A stretch of 64,000 nt of DNA, from the NCBI RefSeq assembly GCF_000026545.1, contig NC_011601.1, one strand, 5' to 3'. The notes beneath the pieces are model-generated. The model had not been told where the DNA came from. It did not search any database and saw only the letters and a list, made by a program, of their open reading frames with translations. Positions within the stretch are counted from its first letter, which is position 1. Every line of letters starts with the position of its first letter. The position numbers and the translations under genes were made by a program. Of this stretch, positions 1 to 35,643 are shown piece by piece. The DNA is from Escherichia coli O127:H6 str. E2348/69 (lineage in GTDB: Bacteria > Pseudomonadota > Gammaproteobacteria > Enterobacterales > Enterobacteriaceae).

Positions 1-53
1 GCCCCTGAAAAGGGTGCGTGAGTATACCCTTTTTCTCTTTTTCGTGGGCGGTT

Positions 54-557
54 ATGAGCAATCTTACTTATCTTCAGGGTTATCCCGAGCAGCTACTTTC
101 CCAGGTGCGAACGCTGATTAACGAACAGCGTCTGGGCGATGTGCTGGCAAAACGTTATCCGGGAACACACGACTACGCCACCGATAAAGCCCTCTGGCAA
201 TATACCCAGGATCTTAAAAATCAGTTTCTGCGCAATGCCCCGCCGATCAATAAAGTGATGTATGACAATAAGATCCACGTGCTGAAAAACGCGCTCGGAT
301 TACATAATGCTGTCTCGCGTGTGCAGGGCGGCAAGCTGAAAGCAAAAGCAGAGATCCGCGTCGCTACCGTGTTTCGCAACGCGCCGGAACCGTTTTTGCG
401 CATGATCGTGGTGCACGAGCTGGCGCACCTGAAGGAGAAAGAGCATAACAAAGCGTTTTACCAGTTGTGCTGTCATATGGAACCGCAGTACCACCAGCTT
501 GAGTTCGACACCCGGCTGTGGCTAACGCAGTTGTCGCTTGGGCAGGACAAAATCTGA
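54..557 (+). CDS. ygjP: Metal-dependent hydrolase YgjP (UTP pyrophosphatase family)
   Basis: ORF 18..557; internal Met gives 167 aa; HExxH motif (VVHELAHL); synteny with ygjQ-ygjR-alx. Confidence 0.8.
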   Translation: MSNLTYLQGYPEQLLSQVRTLINEQRLGDVLAKRYPGTHDYATDKALWQYTQDLKNQFLRNAPPINKVMYDNKIHVLKNALGLHNAVSRVQGGKLKAKAEIRVATVFRNAPEPFLRMIVVHELAHLKEKEHNKAFYQLCCHMEPQYHQLEFDTRLWLTQLSLGQDKI

Positions 558-633
558 AAATGATGTCAGGCGTTATTTTTTCCTCCTTTAGCGCCTAAAA
601 TCGACCTCCCCCCTTTCGTTAAGGATAACGACC

Positions 634-1326
634 ATGCTGCGCTTATTTGCCCACCTTCTTCTCCGTATTTGTTTTTCTCGCCGGACTCTTAAAATTGGCT
701 GTTTATTGTTGCTTATAGCAGGAGCGACCATTTTTATTGCCGATCGCGTTATGGTCAACGCCAGCAAGCAGCTGACCTGGAGTGATGTCAACGCCGTTCC
801 GGCGCGGAACGTGGGTTTATTGCTGGGGGCGAGGCCGGGTAATCGCTACTTTACCCGACGTATTGATAGCGCCGCAGAGTTGTACCACGCCGGAAAAGTG
901 AAATGGCTATTGGTGAGCGGCGATAATGGACGTAAAAATTACGATGAAGCGTCAGGAATGCAGCAAGCCTTGATCGCTAAAGGCGTACCGGCGAAAGTGA
1001 TCTTCTGCGACTATGCCGGATTCTCAACGCTTGATTCGGTGGTGCGTGCCAAAAAGGTGTTTGGGGAAAACCATATCACCATTATTTCGCAAGAATTTCA
1101 TAACCAACGCGCCATCTGGCTGGCAAAACAGTACGGCATCGACGCTATCGGCTTTAACGCGCCAGACCTCAATATGAAGCACGGTTTTTATACTCAGTTA
1201 CGGGAGAAACTCGCCAGAGTCAGCGCGGTGATTGACGCAAAAATCCTCCATCGCCAGCCGAAATATCTCGGGCCATCGGTCATGATTGGGCCGTTTAGTG
1301 AGCATGGCTGTCCGGCAAAAGAATAA
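634..1326 (+). CDS. ygjQ: DUF218 (SanA/YdcF-like) membrane-anchored protein
   Basis: 230-aa ORF, N-terminal hydrophobic segment; synteny. Confidence 0.8.
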
Positions 1327-1404
1327 TGCGTATCTGCGCACGTCGAAGATAAAAAAGGCGTGCTACAGTGACGAGAGAATCCCTTTATGGAGTATCCACG
1401 CGTT

Positions 1405-2391
1405 ATGATACGTTTCGCTGTGATTGGTACGAACTGGATCACTCGCCAGTTCGTCGAGGCCGCCCATGAGAGCGGTAAATACAAGTTAACCGCCGTTTAT
1501 TCCCGCAGTCTTGAACAGGCCCAGCACTTCGCCAATGATTTTTCTGTCGAGCATCTGTTTACGTCGCTGGAAGCGATGGCAGAAAGCGATGCCATTGACG
1601 CGGTGTATATTGCCAGCCCGAATTCCCTGCACTTTTCCCAGACACAACTTTTCCTTAGTCACAAAATTCATGTGATTTGCGAGAAACCGCTGGCGTCGAA
1701 TCTGGCGGAAGTGGATGCCGCCATTGCCTGTGCGCGGGAAAATCAGGTGGTGCTGTTTGAGGCATTTAAAACGGCCTACCTGCCGAACTTTCATCTGTTA
1801 CGCCAGGCGCTGCCGAAAGTCGGCAAACTGCGTAAAGTCTTTTTCAACTATTGCCAGTATTCCTCGCGGTATCAGCGTTACCTGGACGGAGAGAATCCCA
1901 ACACCTTCAATCCGGCATTCTCCAACGGTTCGATTATGGATATCGGCTTTTACTGCCTGGCGTCGGCGGTGGCATTATTCGGTGAACCGAAAAGCGTGCA
2001 GGCAACCGCCAGTTTGCTGGCAAGTGGTGTGGATGCCCACGGCGTGGTGGTGATGGATTACGGTGATTTCAGCGTTACGTTGCAGCACTCAAAAGTGAGC
2101 GATTCTGTCCTGGCAAGCGAGATTCAGGGCGAAGCGGGATCGCTGGTGATTGAAAAACTGTCTGAATGCCAGAAAGTCTGCTTTGTATCGCGTGGCAGCC
2201 AGATGCAGGATCTCACCCAGCCACAGCATATTAATACCATGCTCTACGAAGCAGAGCTGTTCGCTACCCTAGTGGATGAGCATCTGGTGAATCATCCAGG
2301 GCTGGCGGTCAGTCACATCACCGCCAAACTGCTGACTGAGATCCGCCGCCAGACTGGGGTGATTTTTCCGGCAGATAACGTAAAACTATAA
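1405..2391 (+). CDS. ygjR: Gfo/Idh/MocA-family NAD(P)-dependent oxidoreductase
   Basis: ORF 1387..2391; start at MIRFAVIGTNW gives 328 aa; Rossmann N-terminus. Confidence 0.8.
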   Translation: MIRFAVIGTNWITRQFVEAAHESGKYKLTAVYSRSLEQAQHFANDFSVEHLFTSLEAMAESDAIDAVYIASPNSLHFSQTQLFLSHKIHVICEKPLASNLAEVDAAIACARENQVVLFEAFKTAYLPNFHLLRQALPKVGKLRKVFFNYCQYSSRYQRYLDGENPNTFNPAFSNGSIMDIGFYCLASAVALFGEPKSVQATASLLASGVDAHGVVVMDYGDFSVTLQHSKVSDSVLASEIQGEAGSLVIEKLSECQKVCFVSRGSQMQDLTQPQHINTMLYEAELFATLVDEHLVNHPGLAVSHITAKLLTEIRRQTGVIFPADNVKL

Positions 2392-2423
2392 TTGCCAAAG
2401 TAAAACAGTGTAAAAGGCATGTA

Positions 2424-2673
2424 ACAGACCATTGACTGACTGAATGGTCTGTCATACTTTGTTACCTGCAAAGGGGAGTAACTTCATTGTCGGTCGATCG
2501 TCATTACGATGTGTGAAAAACCACATCCGGTCACCGGGCAACCCGAAAGGAATACGCAGACGTATTCCTTTTTTGTTGTAAGTGAGACCTTGCCGGAAGG
2601 CGAGGTCTATGCATAAAAAGCAGCGGCTGACGTCTTCCGACGTTGGCCGTTTTTTTATGTGTAAGGAACTTCT
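2424..2673 (+). promoter_or_regulatory. alx 5' leader (pH/Mn2+-responsive riboswitch-type element) with two hairpin + U-tract structures
   Basis: Hairpin aaaggaatacg..cgtattcc + T6 at 2546-2575; hairpin ggctgacgtc..gacgttggcc + T7 at 2625-2657 immediately 5' of the alx SD (gtaaggaa) and ATG at 2674. Confidence 0.55.
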
Positions 2674-3639
2674 ATGAATACTGTCGGCACGCCGTTGCTA
2701 TGGGGCGGATTCGCTGTTGTTGTCACCATTATGCTGGCTATCGACCTGTTGTTGCAGGGGCGTCGTGGGGCACATGCCATGACCATGAAACAGGCTGCGG
2801 CCTGGTCGCTGGTCTGGGTGACGCTGTCGTTACTGTTTAACGCCGCTTTCTGGTGGTATCTGGTGCAAACCGAAGGTCGCGCCGTTGCCGATCCACAAGC
2901 ACTGGCCTTTCTCACGGGTTATCTGATTGAGAAATCGCTGGCGGTCGATAACGTCTTTGTCTGGCTGATGTTGTTCAGCTATTTCTCTGTTCCGGCGGCA
3001 TTACAACGCCGCGTGCTGGTGTATGGCGTGCTTGGGGCGATTGTTCTGCGTACCATCATGATCTTCACCGGTAGCTGGCTGATTTCACAGTTCGACTGGA
3101 TCTTGTATATCTTCGGCGCATTCCTGCTGTTTACCGGCGTGAAGATGGCGCTCGCTCATGAAGATGAATCAGGCATTGGCGACAAGCCGCTGGTGCGCTG
3201 GCTACGCGGTCATTTGCGCATGACCGACACCATCGACAACGAGCATTTCTTTGTGCGTAAAAATGGTTTGTTGTATGCCACGCCGCTGATGCTGGTGCTG
3301 ATTCTGGTGGAGTTGAGCGACGTGATTTTCGCCGTGGATAGTATTCCGGCTATCTTCGCCGTGACCACCGATCCGTTTATTGTGCTGACCTCAAACCTGT
3401 TTGCGATCCTCGGCCTGCGTGCGATGTATTTCCTGCTGGCAGGTGTGGCAGAGCGTTTCTCGATGCTCAAATATGGTCTGGCGGTGATTCTGGTGTTTAT
3501 CGGTATCAAGATGCTGATTGTCGACTTCTACCATATTCCGATCGCCGTCTCGCTGGGCGTGGTGTTTGGCATTCTGGTGATGACGTTTATTATCAACGCC
3601 TGGGTGAATTATCGGCATGATAAGCAGCGGGTAGAATAA
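2674..3639 (+). CDS. alx: TerC-family inner membrane protein Alx (putative Mn2+ exporter)
   Basis: 321-aa ORF, multi-pass membrane protein; synteny. Confidence 0.9.
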
Positions 3640-3710
3640 TTTTTAATCTGCCTAAGCCGTGTACTCTGTCATCAACATGAGCACCGTTTTCTCCCTCTCC
3701 CCAAAAGGGG

Positions 3711-5260
3711 CTGTCTCTTATACACAAATCCCCACCCGGGGATTTGTGATGTCTGTCAGTCTGCTTTAGGGGGACTCTTTCCATCCGGTAGTTTCCTTCC
3801 TCCCCGGCAGCGATTTTTTGAACTTTTTCCTCACCCGTTGATCTTCTCTTATATTTCATTTTCTTCGGGTCTGTTATGGTACTTTCTGATTGTTATTCAT
3901 GGGCTAACGAGCAGTTTGGACATGCCCGTCTCGGTGATCCGCGTCGTACACGACGCCTTGTGTCACTGGCCTCTTCTCTCGCTCAGCATGCAGGTCTTTC
4001 TATTGTGAAATCATCCCAGTCCACTGCTCAGGTTGAAGGTGCGTACCGCCTGATACGTAACCCGTCTGTGTCCCCGCAAGCCATTGCCGAAGCCGGATTT
4101 ACCGCCACTGTAAGGGCATGTGAGGCTCATCCGCTGCTCCTCGCGCTGGAAGACACCACCACCATTAACTTCAGTCACAGTACGGCATCTGATGACCTGG
4201 GGAATACCACCACTAACCCGAAGACGCGCGGGCTGCTGGCTCACTCTGTCCTGATGTACGCCCCCGACAGCGCCCTGCCAGTCGGTCTTATCGAACAGCA
4301 GCGCTGGAGTCGTGCCACGGACACCTACGGTGTTAAGCACCAGCGAAAAGAACGTCCCTATGAAGAAAAAGAAAGTTACCGCTGGCAGCAGGCTTCGGAG
4401 CGCATGGCCGAACGGCTGGGGGAGATACAGAAACGGGTAATCACTGTCTGTGACCGGGAAGCGGATATCTGGCATTACCTGCATTATAAAGTCAGCCACG
4501 GGCAGCGCTTCGTGGTGCGTGCAGCACAGAATCGCCGGCTGGAAGAAGCACCCGGCAAGCTCTTCGAACTGCCGGAAGTCCTGGCAACCGCGGGAAGCCA
4601 CACGCTGAATGTGATGCAAAAAGGCGGGCGGGCAGCCCGCCAGGCCCGGATGTTCATCAGTTACAGCGAAGTCAGCATAAAAAACCCCGACAACAGCGGC
4701 CAGGCGCTCCCGCTCACGTATGTCTGTTGCCGGGAGCAGGCAGAGGACGGCGCCTGCTGGCATCTGCTGACGTCAGAAAAAGTGGCGAGTGCCGCCGATG
4801 CGCGACGTATCGTCAGCCATTACGAGCGACGCTGGCTGATAGAGGAATACCACAAGGCGTGGAAAAGTGGTGGTACATGTGTGGAATCGCTGCGAATGCA
4901 GACCCGGGATAACCTCGAGCGCATGGTGGTTATCAAGGCGTTTATCGCGGTGCGGGTGCTGGGCCTGCGGCAGGGCGGTATCAGTGAAGAAACACAAAAT
5001 GACAGCTGTGAGAAAATACTGACGCCGACAGAGTGGAAACTGCTGTGGGTTAAGCTGGAAGGAAAACCGCTTCCGTCACAGATGCCGACACTGAAATGGG
5101 CCTGTCTGAAACTGGCGAAACTGGGGCGATGGCATGACAGCAAACGCACCGGTCGCCCCGGTTGGGTAGTCATGTGGGATGGCTGGTTCAGACTTCAGGA
5201 TATGGTTGAGGGTTACCTGGTGATGAAGTCTCTTGATCAGGAGATCTGATCAAGAGACAG
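3711..5260 (+). mobile_element. IS4-family insertion sequence, IS50/Tn5-like (about 1550 bp)
   Basis: Left end ctgtctcttatacacaaat (3711-3729) and right end agatctgatcaagagacag (5242-5260), inverted; one transposase ORF; flanked by identical ccaaaagggg at 3701-3710 and 5261-5270. Confidence 0.85.
3876..5249 (+). CDS. DDE transposase, IS4 family (Tn5 Tnp-like)
   Basis: 457-aa ORF; LGDPRRT N-terminal motif, catalytic-region motifs ALEDTT, VCDREADI, YERRWLIEEYHKAW; stop codon lies inside the right terminal repeat as in IS50. Confidence 0.9.
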   Translation: MVLSDCYSWANEQFGHARLGDPRRTRRLVSLASSLAQHAGLSIVKSSQSTAQVEGAYRLIRNPSVSPQAIAEAGFTATVRACEAHPLLLALEDTTTINFSHSTASDDLGNTTTNPKTRGLLAHSVLMYAPDSALPVGLIEQQRWSRATDTYGVKHQRKERPYEEKESYRWQQASERMAERLGEIQKRVITVCDREADIWHYLHYKVSHGQRFVVRAAQNRRLEEAPGKLFELPEVLATAGSHTLNVMQKGGRAARQARMFISYSEVSIKNPDNSGQALPLTYVCCREQAEDGACWHLLTSEKVASAADARRIVSHYERRWLIEEYHKAWKSGGTCVESLRMQTRDNLERMVVIKAFIAVRVLGLRQGGISEETQNDSCEKILTPTEWKLLWVKLEGKPLPSQMPTLKWACLKLAKLGRWHDSKRTGRPGWVVMWDGWFRLQDMVEGYLVMKSLDQEI

Positions 5261-5522
5261 CCAAAAGGGGCGAGGGGACTGACCGAGTACTTTTTTGACG
5301 TTGTCATCAGTCTGGAAGCCGCACGTTGGGCTTTATTTTCATGTCAAACAAATGTAACCATTAAGTTGCGAAATATGACTTCTCTTTAAAATCCAGCATA
5401 TTTCGCTTCCCGAAGCTGTAACTTTCCTTATACTCGACCTTGCAAACACTTTGTTACATCCTGAAAGATGCGTCGACAGAACGCACCAGGGATGTGCGAC
5501 AACACAATGAAAGGATCGAAAA

Positions 5523-6767
5523 ATGACTACGCAACATTCACCGGGGCTATTCCGGCGTCTGGCTCATGGCAGCCTGGTAAAACAAATCCTGGTCGGCCTT
5601 ATTCTGGGGATTCTTCTGGCATGGATCTCAAAACCCGCGGCGGAAGCTGTTGGTCTATTAGGTACTTTGTTCGTCGGCGCACTGAAAGCCGTTGCCCCCA
5701 TCCTGGTGTTGATGCTGGTAATGGCATCTATTGCTAACCACCAGCACGGGCAGAAAACCAATATCCGCCCTATTTTGTTCCTCTATCTGCTGGGCACCTT
5801 CTCTGCTGCTCTGGCCGCAGTGATCTTCAGTTTTGCCTTCCCTTCTACCCTGCACTTGTCCAGTAGCGCGGGTGATATTTCGCCGCCGTCAGGCATTGTA
5901 GAAGTGATGCGCGGGCTGGTAATGAGCATGGTTTCCAACCCCATTGACGCGCTGCTGAAAGGTAACTACATCGGGATCCTGGTGTGGGCAATTGGCCTCG
6001 GTTTCTCACTGCGTCACGGTAACGAGACCACCAAAAACCTGGTCAACGATATGTCGAATGCCGTCACCTTTATGGTGAAACTGGTGATTCGCTTCGCACC
6101 GATCGGTATTTTTGGTCTGGTTTCTTCTACCCTGGCAACCACCGGTTTCTCCACGCTGTGGGGCTACGCGCAACTGCTGGTGGTACTGGTTGGCTGTATG
6201 CTGCTGGTGGCGCTGGTGGTTAACCCACTGCTGGTATGGTGGAAAATTCGTCGTAACCCGTTCCCGCTGGTGCTGCTGTGCCTGCGCGAAAGCGGCGTGT
6301 ATGCCTTCTTCACCCGCAGCTCTGCGGCGAACATTCCGGTGAATATGGCGCTGTGTGAAAAGCTGAATCTGGATCGCGATACCTATTCCGTTTCTATTCC
6401 GCTGGGAGCCACCATCAATATGGCGGGCGCAGCAATCACCATTACCGTGTTGACGCTGGCTGCGGTTAATACGCTGGGTATTCCGGTTGATCTGCCCACA
6501 GCGCTGCTGTTGAGCGTAGTGGCTTCTCTGTGTGCCTGTGGCGCATCCGGCGTGGCGGGGGGGTCTCTGTTGCTGATCCCACTGGCCTGTAATATGTTCG
6601 GTATTTCGAACGATATCGCCATGCAGGTGGTTGCTGTCGGCTTTATTATCGGCGTATTGCAGGACTCCTGTGAAACCGCGCTGAACTCGTCAACTGACGT
6701 GCTATTCACTGCGGCAGCTTGCCAGGCGGAAGACGATCGTCTGGCAAATAGCGCCCTGCGTAACTAA
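5523..6767 (+). CDS. sstT: Serine/threonine:Na+ symporter
   Basis: 414-aa ORF, polytopic membrane protein, recognised sequence. Confidence 0.95.
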
Positions 6768-6770
6768 TAC

Positions 6771-7322
6771 TTAGCCCCTTTCGTCTACGGCGGAAGGGGT
6801 TTTCTCCACTTTAAACGGATCAATTCCCCTTCTCTGCATACGCCAGAAACGAATGATATTCAGGCCATTCATCAGCAGAAAACTGCCTTCAATCATCGTG
6901 CCGCCTATCGACCCCGCCCAGAAGTTGTGAATCACCCAGCAACACGTTGAAAACCACATTACGCAGCGCATGGTCAGCCCTTTACAGCGGAACAGCGCCC
7001 AGGTACTGACAATCGTGCCGATTACCGGCAATAGTTCGACAGGATGATGGAACTTCGCGAGGCCAATTCCGCCAGTCAGCACAATAAAAATCGCCATTAC
7101 CCATAAGCTGCGCGTGCGTAAGGTAATCAATGTACGAATGGCATTAAGGATGGCACTGGCACCGGCAGGATAGGTGCCCAGAAGAAAAAAATGTACGCCA
7201 ATAACGGCGCTATAGACCGAAAGTTGCTTTTTGAAGCGACGTTCGTCACGATTGAAAAATGTTGTGATACCAATCAGAAAGGCGATGACACCCACGCCCT
7301 GGGCCAGCCAATACGCGGTCAT
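6771..7322 (-). CDS. ygjV: Inner membrane protein YgjV
   Basis: 183-aa hydrophobic ORF; synteny between sstT and uxaA. Confidence 0.85.
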   Translation of the reverse strand: MTAYWLAQGVGVIAFLIGITTFFNRDERRFKKQLSVYSAVIGVHFFLLGTYPAGASAILNAIRTLITLRTRSLWVMAIFIVLTGGIGLAKFHHPVELLPVIGTIVSTWALFRCKGLTMRCVMWFSTCCWVIHNFWAGSIGGTMIEGSFLLMNGLNIIRFWRMQRRGIDPFKVEKTPSAVDERG

Positions 7323-7404
7323 GATAAATCCTTAGCAGGTATGGAAAAGCAAACGGCGCTTCACATTATGAAACGCCGTTTTTTATTAACAACTCATTTC
7401 GACT

Positions 7405-8892
7405 TTATAGCGTTACGCCGCTTTTGAAGATCGCCAGTTCGCGGAAGTCGTTACGCTCGTTACAGGTTTGCTTACCGTTGGCAAACTCAACGATGGTGTC
7501 GATAAATTCTTCCAGCAACTGCGGCATCGCTTTACCGTGGATCAGCTGACCCGCGTCAAAGTCGATCCAGTGTTTTTTCTTCGCCGCCAGTTCGCTGTTG
7601 GTGGCGATTTTCACCGTCGGTACAAATCCGCCGTACGGCGTGCCGCGACCGGTACTGAACAGCACCATATGGCAGCCCGCACCCGCCAGGGCGCTGGTCG
7701 CTACGGCATCGTTACCCGGCGCACTTAACAAGTTCAGCCCCGGCGTTTTCAGACGCTCGCCGTAACGCAGCACGTCAACCACGACGCTGGAACCCGCTTT
7801 CTGGGTACAGCCAAGTGATTTGTCTTCCAGCGTGGTGATACCGCCCGCTTTGTTCCCCGGCGATGGGTTTTCATAGATCGGCTGGTCATGGGCAATAAAG
7901 TACTGCTTGAAGTCATTGACCATGGTGACCAGTTTTTCAAACGTTGCTTCGTCGCGACAATGGTCCATCAGCAACTGCTCTGCGCCAAACATCTCCGGCA
8001 CTTCGGTCAGTACGGTAGTACCGCCGTTAGCAATCACGTAGTCAGAGAAACGCCCCAGCATCGGGTTAGCAGTAATACCAGAAAGACCGTCAGAACCACC
8101 GCACTCCAGACCAAACTTCAGTTCGCTGAGTTTGCCCGGCTCGCGTTTATCGTTGCGCATCACGCTATACAGCTGATGCAAATGCGCGATCCCGGCCTCG
8201 ATTTCATCATCCTGCTGTTGGCAGATCATGAAATGAACGCGTTCAGGATCGATATCGCCCAACGTTTCACGGAATGCGGCAACCTGGTTATTTTCGCAAC
8301 CCAGACCAATCACCAGCACTGCGCCCGCGTTCGGGTGGCGCACCATGTTTTGCAGCATGGTGCGAGTATTGATGTGATCGTCGCCCAGTTGTGAGCAGCC
8401 GTAGGTGTGGCTGAAGAGGAACACGCCGTCGGTACCTTCAGCGTTGTTGGTCTCTTTCAGGAAACGATTTTGGATCTGCCGCGCGATGCCGTTGACACAG
8501 CCCACGGTTGGCAGGATCCACAGCTCATTACGCACCCCGACATCGCCGTTAGCGCGACGATAGATCTGCACTTCACGATCTGCCGCTTGCGCAGGCAGAT
8601 TCTGAAAATCAGGTTGATAGCGATACTGATCCAGATCGCTCAGATTCGTGCGCGTATTGTGGGCGTGAACGTGTTCCCCCGCCGCAATATCCGCCAATGC
8701 ATAACCAATCGGCAGGCCATATTTAATGACGTTGGCCCCTTTTGCGATATCCGTTAACGCAAATTTATGTCCACGAGCAACATCCTGGCGCAGCGTAACA
8801 GTCTGGTTATCGACACTGACTTCTGTGCCTTCAGCCAAATCCGCTAAAGCAACCGCGACGTTATCCAGCGCATGGATCTTGATGTATTGCAT
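7405..8892 (-). CDS. uxaA: Altronate dehydratase
   Basis: 495-aa ORF; recognised sequence; operon with uxaC. Confidence 0.95.
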   Translation of the reverse strand: MQYIKIHALDNVAVALADLAEGTEVSVDNQTVTLRQDVARGHKFALTDIAKGANVIKYGLPIGYALADIAAGEHVHAHNTRTNLSDLDQYRYQPDFQNLPAQAADREVQIYRRANGDVGVRNELWILPTVGCVNGIARQIQNRFLKETNNAEGTDGVFLFSHTYGCSQLGDDHINTRTMLQNMVRHPNAGAVLVIGLGCENNQVAAFRETLGDIDPERVHFMICQQQDDEIEAGIAHLHQLYSVMRNDKREPGKLSELKFGLECGGSDGLSGITANPMLGRFSDYVIANGGTTVLTEVPEMFGAEQLLMDHCRDEATFEKLVTMVNDFKQYFIAHDQPIYENPSPGNKAGGITTLEDKSLGCTQKAGSSVVVDVLRYGERLKTPGLNLLSAPGNDAVATSALAGAGCHMVLFSTGRGTPYGGFVPTVKIATNSELAAKKKHWIDFDAGQLIHGKAMPQLLEEFIDTIVEFANGKQTCNERNDFRELAIFKSGVTL

Positions 8893-8906
8893 ATCAACCC
8901 CAGACC

Positions 8907-10421
<1,515 letters not shown>

Positions 10422-34758: not shown

Positions 34759-35643
34759 TTAGCGAGTAACTTCGACTTTCGCCAGTTTTTCGTAGTAGCA
34801 CGCCAGGGCGCTATGATCCGCCGTTCCTAAACCATCTGCACGCAGTGCCTGCATCATCTCCATAACCGCAGCTGTGAGCGGCAGTTGCGCGCCGACGCCG
34901 TGAGAAGTATCCAGCGCATTCGCCAGATCCTTAATATGCAGATCAATACGGAAGCCCGGTTTGAAGTTGCGGTCCATCACCATCGGCGCTTTGGCATCCA
35001 GCACGGTACTGCCCGCCAGCCCACCGCGAATTGCCTGATACACCAGATCCGGGTTAACGCCCGCTTTGGTTGCCAACGTTAACGCTTCTGACATCGCAGC
35101 AATATTCAGCGCCACAATGACCTGATTTGCCAGTTTGGTGACGTTACCTGCACCGATTTCCCCGGTATGCACCACGGAACCCGCCATCGCTTTCATCAAA
35201 TCATAGTATTTGTCGAAAATAGCCTTGTCGCCGCCCACCATCACTGACAGCGTACCGTCGATGGCTTTCGGTTCACCGCCGCTCACCGGGGCGTCCAGCA
35301 TATCAATGCCTTTCGCTTTCAGCGCTTCGCTGATTTCACGGCTTGCCAGCGGTGCGATAGAACTCATATCAATCAATACCGTACCTGGCTTCGCGCCTTC
35401 AATAATGCCATTCTCACCCAGCGCCACCTCTTTCACATGAGGGGAGTTTGGCAGCATGGTTATGATGACGTCGCACTGTTCAGCGATCGCTTTAGCCGTA
35501 GAGGCTGTTTCTGCACCTGCAGCAATCACGTCAGCGATAGCTTCTGGGTTACGGTCAGCAACCACCAGCGAGTAACCTGCTTTCAAAAGGTTTTTACTCA
35601 TTGGTTTACCCATAATCCCAAGGCCAATAAAACCAACTTTCAT
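34759..35643 (-). CDS. garR: Tartronate semialdehyde reductase
   Basis: ORF 34759..35658; start MKVGFIGLGIMG gives 294 aa; NAD-binding GxGxxG. Confidence 0.9.
   Translation of the reverse strand: MKVGFIGLGIMGKPMSKNLLKAGYSLVVADRNPEAIADVIAAGAETASTAKAIAEQCDVIITMLPNSPHVKEVALGENGIIEGAKPGTVLIDMSSIAPLASREISEALKAKGIDMLDAPVSGGEPKAIDGTLSVMVGGDKAIFDKYYDLMKAMAGSVVHTGEIGAGNVTKLANQVIVALNIAAMSEALTLATKAGVNPDLVYQAIRGGLAGSTVLDAKAPMVMDRNFKPGFRIDLHIKDLANALDTSHGVGAQLPLTAAVMEMMQALRADGLGTADHSALACYYEKLAKVEVTR

Follow-up and report, generated by a model that had tools for sequence, protein, structure and literature searches.

A 1550-bp insertion sequence lies between alx and sstT in the analysed window, a 64-kb stretch of Escherichia coli O127:H6 E2348/69 DNA, and is oriented like both of these genes. 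Megablast against 5426 complete E. coli genomes returned a 100% match over all 1550 bp to NZ_LT827011.1 (3408153-3409702), which is the alx-sstT locus of E. coli O127:H6 E2348/69, with the gene order ygjP, ygjQ, ygjR, alx, IS, sstT, ygjV, uxaA. RefSeq names the product at this locus "IS4-like element ISEc13 family transposase" (WP_000244358.1). Judged by its sequence, the element is the already catalogued ISEc13 of the published E2348/69 genome; the name was taken from the RefSeq annotation of the identical locus and protein, as a proxy for the near-identity convention of ISfinder (about 95% DNA or more). The features of the locus are listed in Table 1.

Table 1. Features of ISEc13 and its insertion site between alx and sstT (positions in the window)
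Feature	Position	Strand	Remarks
Complete ISEc13 insertion sequence (IS4 family, IS50 subgroup)	3711-5260	+	1550 bp
Transposase gene, WP_000244358.1	3876-5249	+	457 aa; sole ORF, without frameshift
Catalytic residues	D93 (4152-4154), D193 (4452-4454), E323 (4842-4844)		aligned to Tn5 D97, D188, E326
Left 19-bp end, CTGTCTCTTATACACAAAT, IS50 outside-end-like	3711-3729	+	17/19 to outside end (OE) CTGACTCTTATACACAAGT; 17/19 to mosaic end (ME) CTGTCTCTTATACACATCT
Right 19-bp end, CTGTCTCTTGATCAGATCT	5242-5260	-	19/19 to IS50 inside end (IE); contains transposase stop codon
Perfect 11-bp stem, 4-nt loop, CACAAATCCCC ACCC GGGGATTTGTG	3723-3748	.	DNA fold -12.4 kcal/mol, z = -6.0
Perfect 13-bp stem, 5-nt loop, GTCTCTTGATCAG GAGAT CTGATCAAGAGAC	5228-5258	.	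DNA fold -13.7 kcal/mol, z = -4.7
Left target-site duplication copy, 10 bp, CCAAAAGGGG	3701-3710	.	exact repeat of 5261-5270
Right target-site duplication copy, 10 bp, CCAAAAGGGG	5261-5270	.	exact repeat of 3701-3710
Left half of split target hairpin, GC-rich, boxC-like, CTCCCTCTCCCC-AAAA-GGGGCGAGGGGA	3691-3710	.	fold of reconstructed empty site
Right half of split target hairpin	5261-5279	.	fold of reconstructed empty site

An earlier note, made from the letters of this DNA, had described an IS50/Tn5-like element with inverted ends, a single DDE transposase ORF and identical 10-bp repeats on either side. All three features were recovered at the positions it had given, the repeats being exact and the ends forming an inverted repeat whose terminal 9 bp are perfect (13 of 19 positions match overall). 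The IS50 subgroup has been defined by DDE residues, a Y-(2)-R-(3)-E-(6)-K motif, ends of the form CW------Y---CA-A--W-, a size of 1350-1550 bp and direct repeats of 8-9 bp (De Palmenaer et al. 2008, PMC2266710). The size of the element falls within this range, both 19-bp ends fit all specified positions, and the YREK residues (Y316, R319, E323, K330) show exactly the spacing of the motif. The 8-9 bp range also holds for 18 of the 20 ISEc13 target loci that we surveyed, whereas the 10-bp alx-sstT copy lies outside it.

Transposase and element ends

The relationship to Tn5 that the earlier note had proposed was confirmed at the protein level. Structures of the Tn5 transposase in the PDB matched residues 6-453 with E = 6e-84, at an identity of 42% over 436 aligned residues, and the Pfam domains Tnp_DNA_bind (PF14706), DDE_Tnp_1 (PF01609) and Dimer_Tnp_Tn5 (PF02281) were found, corresponding to an N-terminal DNA-binding region, a DDE core and a C-terminal dimerisation region. 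NCBIfam model NF033590 scored 514 bits against a cut-off of 160. In the alignment Y316, R319 and K330 stand opposite Tn5 Y319, R322 and K333, and W295 opposite W298. The start codon of the Tn5 inhibitor (Inh), Met56, is not kept; Gln52 occupies the aligned position and no start codon is adjacent, so that regulation is unlike that of IS50 in at least this respect. A simple scan of the left arm, the 165 bp upstream of the ORF, gave no sigma-70-like promoter, and Rfam at relaxed thresholds gave no RNA family in positions 1-9000 of the window or in the IS.

The left end retains TTATACACA, the DnaA box of the IS50 outside end. The reference sequences for the outside end and for the mosaic end, an engineered sequence, came from PMC3347997. 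On the top strand the right terminus of the element reads ...AGATCTGATCAAGAGACAG, and the right end carries two GATC (Dam) sites, starting at 5243 and 5248. As the IS50 inside end we used CTGTCTCTTGATCAGATCT, in agreement with a Tn5 nptII-promoter primer that contains this sequence (PMC5458577). Because the right end is identical to the Dam-sensitive inside end of IS50, use of the ends is likely to be controlled by Dam methylation. Within the 64-kb window, each of the two 21-bp ends has a single occurrence, compared with an expectation of 0 from shuffles. The hairpin near the left terminus overlaps the inner part of the left end; in the one at the right terminus, the right end is paired with its own inward-facing near-copy.

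ISEc13 thus shares with IS50/Tn5 a similar size, the domain architecture, the DDE and YREK residues and a transposase stop codon inside the right end. It differs from them in having Gln52 in place of the Inh start Met56, in its repeats of 7-10 bp (mostly 8) instead of 9 bp, in a strong GC-rich palindromic target motif and in the perfect hairpins that overlap both ends. On the basis of the conserved residues and ends, and by homology to Tn5, two transposase molecules would bind the 19-bp ends and then synapse them, and the element would be excised via hairpin intermediates at its ends. Its 3' ends would be joined to staggered target positions, and repair of the stagger would leave the flanking direct repeat.

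The alx-sstT insertion and other ISEc13 copies

The empty site was reconstructed by joining 300 bp from the left flank, with a single CCAAAAGGGG as its last bases, to 300 bp from the right flank. This sequence matched CFT073, Nissle 1917, ATCC 25922, ABU 83972 and many other B2 strains at 100% over 600 bp; the empty site that the earlier note had suggested looking for was hence found verbatim. The alx-sstT spacer of K-12 MG1655 measures 398 bp and contains no IS, in line with the short K-12 spacer that the note had expected, and the B2 spacer of 323 bp differs from it through the deletion of 75 bp between a pair of GC-rich palindromes. An empty site with a single 10-mer, together with the IS-free K-12 spacer, indicates that the insertion is real and lineage-specific and that it duplicated 10 bp. 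The target-site duplication that had been read from the flanks therefore stands, being present in single copy in empty sites, while its length conforms neither to the 9 bp of Tn5, with which the note had compared it, nor to the 8 bp that are usual for ISEc13. On its left side the repeat cannot be lengthened; on its right it gains one base, but only because the first base of the IS is a C, as is the next base of the flank. An alternative parse at 3709-5262 with a 6-bp repeat, prompted by the 11-bp inverted match GGCTGTCTCTT/AAGAGACAGCC, was rejected: other copies end CTG...CAG and their adjoining bases are unrelated.

The insertion landed, in the E2348/69 lineage, at the apex of a boxC-like, GC-rich sequence that can form a hairpin. 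The distance from the alx stop codon to the split hairpin is 71 bp, and 262 bp separate the IS from the sstT start codon. The GC-rich palindromes at alx-sstT are of the boxC kind, and boxC-like palindromes are present here in the K-12 alignment as well. The flanks of the locus were matched in 5419 of the 5426 complete genomes. A 300-bp query spanning the alx-IS junction was covered in just five, namely three E2348/69 assemblies (100%) and the strains Rb-23 and 1002W03 (97%). The exact junction is confined to the E2348/69 assemblies and is therefore a clean lineage marker, which agrees with the earlier suggestion that the element sets this genome apart; to our knowledge, the established K-12 complement of insertion sequences includes no intact IS50 relative. 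In Rb-23 and 1002W03 an independent ISEc13 occupies the same alx hairpin 4 bp further left, with the 9-bp repeat CTCCCCAAA. The Rb-23 copy has the same orientation and differs from the alx-sstT copy of E2348/69 at four internal positions; it represents a distinct event at this hot spot.

Comparison with E. coli genomes and a count of copies in the source, both proposed in the earlier note, yielded 27-30 places matching the element in the E2348/69 chromosome assemblies and two in plasmid pMAR2, one of the pMAR2 copies being without a flanking repeat. Near-full copies were present in 873 of the 5426 complete E. coli genomes and fragments only in about 2100 further ones (e.g., split ORFs in O157:H7); plasmid matches came almost exclusively from Escherichia, Shigella and Salmonella and were mostly remnants. 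An exact scan for the 38-nt left end gave zero matches in a collection of species-representative genomes. Other copies are likewise 1550 bp long with the same ends, and the sole difference noted between them and the alx-sstT copy is the flanking repeat, 8 bp (mostly) or 9 bp as against 10 bp. Identical copies occur in many wild isolates of human, animal and water origin, and in other strains the annotation places WP_000244358.1 at numerous distinct insertion loci. Two copies within one other strain have swapped flanks, which points to recombination between them.

These data bear on three other readings of the element. The surroundings belong to a repeated family of GC-rich palindromes, with similar sequences at L014 and L025, as would suit a conserved, non-mobile chromosomal locus with a flanking repeat that forms part of a native one, the counter-reading that the earlier note had itself named. 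Against this, the IS junction occurs in only five of the thousands of genomes that carry the flanks, and single-10-mer empty sites identical over 600 bp are found in many E. coli chromosomes, leaving this reading with practically no weight. A reading as IS50 proper, or as a Tn5 or mini-Tn5 insertion made in the laboratory, would account for the inside-end identity of the right end, for the 17 of 19 positions that the left end shares with the outside and mosaic ends and for the identical domain architecture. The protein identity of 42% alone refutes it, a single ORF fills the element with no resistance gene or other cargo, identical copies are carried by many wild isolates, and the repeat, with 10 bp at this site and mostly 8 bp at others, departs from the 9 bp of Tn5; an origin of this kind is exceedingly improbable. 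Finally, the copy might look intact and yet be silent, a fixed passenger in E2348/69. The scan of the region upstream of the ORF, which gave no promoter-like site, is compatible with such immobility, as are the perfect hairpins over both ends, which could hinder expression or end binding, and a searchable literature in which the matches, going mainly by their titles, yielded no ISEc13 activity or copy-number data. We nevertheless consider it unlikely, because the ORF is complete and encodes every catalytic residue, the same protein is found at many loci in other strains in addition to the 27-30 places in the E2348/69 chromosome, and insertion sites vary between strains, with hot spots being hit independently.

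Target motif and duplication length

For the analysis of target sites we sampled 25 ISEc13 insertions from many strains, in place of the full E2348/69 set of about 29 copies; they represent 20 independent target loci. The duplication was 8 bp long at 13 loci, 9 bp at five, 7 bp at one and 10 bp at one, the latter being alx-sstT of E2348/69. Across the flanks of 19 unique loci, four positions were invariant (19/19), namely -4 and -2, both C, and +2 and +4, both G. Positions -3 and -1 were pyrimidines, +1 and +3 were mostly purines, and +5 was G at 16 of the 19 loci. The site in Rb-23, the 20th locus, agrees with this pattern. The resulting palindromic flank consensus is CCYCY-N(7-10)-RGRGG, with CCCCT-N8-AGGGG as its commonest form. 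Most sites lie just beyond the ends of genes or between two convergent ones, within hairpins that resemble terminators or boxC. With a 10-bp spacer, the alx-sstT site of E2348/69 conforms as well (CTCC-CCAAAAGGGG-CGAGG). The strict N8 motif has one further occurrence in the 64-kb window (35427-35444), which is unoccupied.

ISEc13 thus appears, as far as sequence comparison can tell, to pick its targets by a palindromic flank motif with a left half-site CCYCY and a right half-site RGRGG, as a rule separated by 8 bp. In the alx-sstT target the distance between the fitting half-sites is 10 bp, which may explain the unusual 10-bp repeat. A stronger version of this idea, near-strict selection of GC-rich palindromes of the form CCYCY-N(7-10)-RGRGG with a duplication length (7-10 bp) that follows the half-site spacing and is not fixed by the transpososome, is one that we put forward tentatively and hold at somewhat less than even confidence. 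Since the runs of C and G in the flanks tolerate one-base shifts, the survey is no proof that half-site spacing sets the repeat length. The symmetric motif could be read as duplex by the two halves of the transpososome, or recognition could be of a hairpin that has been extruded. The second possibility is hinted at by the variability in repeat length, whereas several repeats include bases that would be paired in the stem, which favours recognition of sequence.

The 10-bp repeat could also be parsed as a duplication of 8 bp, CCAAAAGG, with two additional G carried over from the previous donor site and matching the next target bases by chance. Eight base pairs is the usual length for ISEc13 (13 of 20 loci), the empty site, which reads CCAAAAGG-GG, is equally compatible, and G at +2 and +4 would be retained. 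This parse, however, requires imprecise cleavage together with a 1-in-16 coincidence and would place a C at +3, where R is expected. Moreover, two other loci show an 8-bp repeat in one strain and a 9-bp repeat in another, and in these comparisons (L009 with L019, L021 with L004) the extra base is the next target base, as predicted by a longer stagger and not by carry-over from a donor. Our reading is accordingly that the 10 bp are a genuine duplication, longer than is typical, and we regard the 8-bp parse as distinctly unlikely. For the locus as a whole, we are highly confident that the best explanation is an intact ISEc13 copy that landed in a GC-rich hairpin with a 10-bp duplication, presumably by Tn5-type cut-and-paste.

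Related elements and implications

For Tn5, Goryshin is said to have described in 1998 a loose target consensus, A-GNTYWRANC-T. IS231A, another member of the IS4 family, was reportedly found by Hallet in 1994 to prefer GGG-N5-CCC. This short, GC-rich and symmetric target resembles that of ISEc13; IS231A belongs, however, to a different subgroup, and its target has the opposite polarity (GGG...CCC vs. CCYCY...RGRGG), another spacing and repeats of 10-12 bp. IS1397, ISKpn1, IS621 and ISRm22 have been described as inserting into repeated palindromes between genes, at the apex and often where the neighbouring genes are convergent (PMC1525189). The targets of these elements are REP/BIME sequences, whereas ISEc13 sites are boxC-like and terminator-type CCCC...GGGG hairpins, and the elements mostly belong to the IS3 or IS110 families with other chemistries, ISRm22 being a member of the IS4 family. 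In the searchable literature on ISEc13, the matches of which were, by title or abstract, genome or resistance surveys, we found no account of target preference, and the ISfinder entry may record one. What may be new in the present analysis is confined to the target motif together with the variable length of the duplication.

For annotation, the feature is settled as a catalogued mobile element of the EPEC strain E2348/69, in which ISEc13 has multiplied to about 30 copies. Insertions of the element seem to be almost confined to GC-rich palindromes that follow genes, a choice of target that limits gene disruption but splits terminators. Its many copies are homologous sites for rearrangement, as the pair with swapped flanks in another strain illustrates. 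As a relative of Tn5 with near-Tn5 ends and a sharp target preference, ISEc13 could interest those who engineer Tn5. If true, the target model would make it a natural Tn5 relative with a programmable-looking site preference and would explain the reuse of hot spots in E. coli genomes.

Target sites and repeat length

At two target loci, one at agp–yccJ (L009 vs. L019) and one adjoining tRNA-Pro (L004 vs. L021), the ISEc13 repeat was 8 bp long in one strain and 9 bp in the other, and at both loci the additional base of the longer repeat corresponded to target sequence. An exact match to the strict target motif CCYCY-N8-RGRGG, the 8-bp-spacer form of the flank consensus of the sampled ISEc13 loci, was found at window positions 35427–35444 (CCTCTTTCACATGAGGGG); it is the sole other match in the window, and no insertion sequence is present at this site. 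Where the flanking genes were co-directional, the transposase gene was co-oriented with them (5/5; L003, L008, L018, L028 and the window copy), a sample too small for calling a bias.

Element ends and probably rearranged copies

Both ends of ISEc13 are overlapped by a hairpin with a perfect stem, the right one being an inward-facing near-copy of the right end of the element. These hairpins could limit read-through expression or serve as additional binding sites.

Hairpins at the ends of the window copy of ISEc13
Feature	Window position	Stem	Relation to ISEc13 end
Left-end hairpin	3723–3748	perfect, 11 bp	overlaps transposase-binding end
Right-end hairpin	5228–5258	perfect, 13 bp	overlaps transposase-binding end

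Two ISEc13 copies in CP148541.1 (L013, 2304917–2307090; L014, 2365394–2367567) each lacked matching repeats of their own. Their flanks pair crosswise (CTCCCCAA and CGAACCAG), a sequence pattern indicating recombination between both copies, about 60 kb apart (an inversion or similar event). On pMAR2, the plasmid of E2348/69, ISEc13 is located between hok/gef and finO (L005, NZ_CP059841.1, 15027–16576). Comparison of both flanks of this copy revealed no direct repeat, thus suggesting a rearrangement or an adjacent deletion after insertion.

A 35-bp perfect palindrome (CTGTCTCTTGATCAG-GAGAT-CTGATCAAGAGACAG) was observed between trmL and lldD in an E. coli B derivative (L029, NZ_CP117043.1, positions 1499–1533 of the locus). 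It lies within a boxC-like repeat and consists of two face-to-face termini of the ISEc13 right-end type. Many other chromosomes showed 33-bp matches to it, and K-12 carries about 80 bp in its place. The palindrome could be the relic of an ISEc13 insertion after deletion, or a miniature derivative.

The alx-downstream region

Comparison of the alx–sstT spacer (window 3640–3710 plus 5271–5340) with its K-12 counterpart (L027, 3547–3944) revealed that 75 bp are missing from E2348/69 and other B2 strains. The deletion sits between two copies of CCCTCTCC, inside GC-rich boxC-like palindromes. The long 5′ leader upstream of alx (window 2392–2673), which is described as pH/Mn-responsive and of the yybP-ykoY type, matched no Rfam family at E values up to 1.

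The hairpin downstream of alx that is occupied in E2348/69 also harbors ISEc13 in strain Rb-23 (L028, NZ_AP025677.1, positions 2046–3595 of the locus), as it does in strain 1002W03 (H125). Relative to the E2348/69 site, this insertion is shifted leftward by 4 bp and has identical orientation; its flanking repeat is CTCCCCAAA (9 bp), and the copy exhibits four internal differences. This insertion is independent of the E2348/69 event, and the alx-downstream hairpin is a hot spot used more than once by ISEc13.
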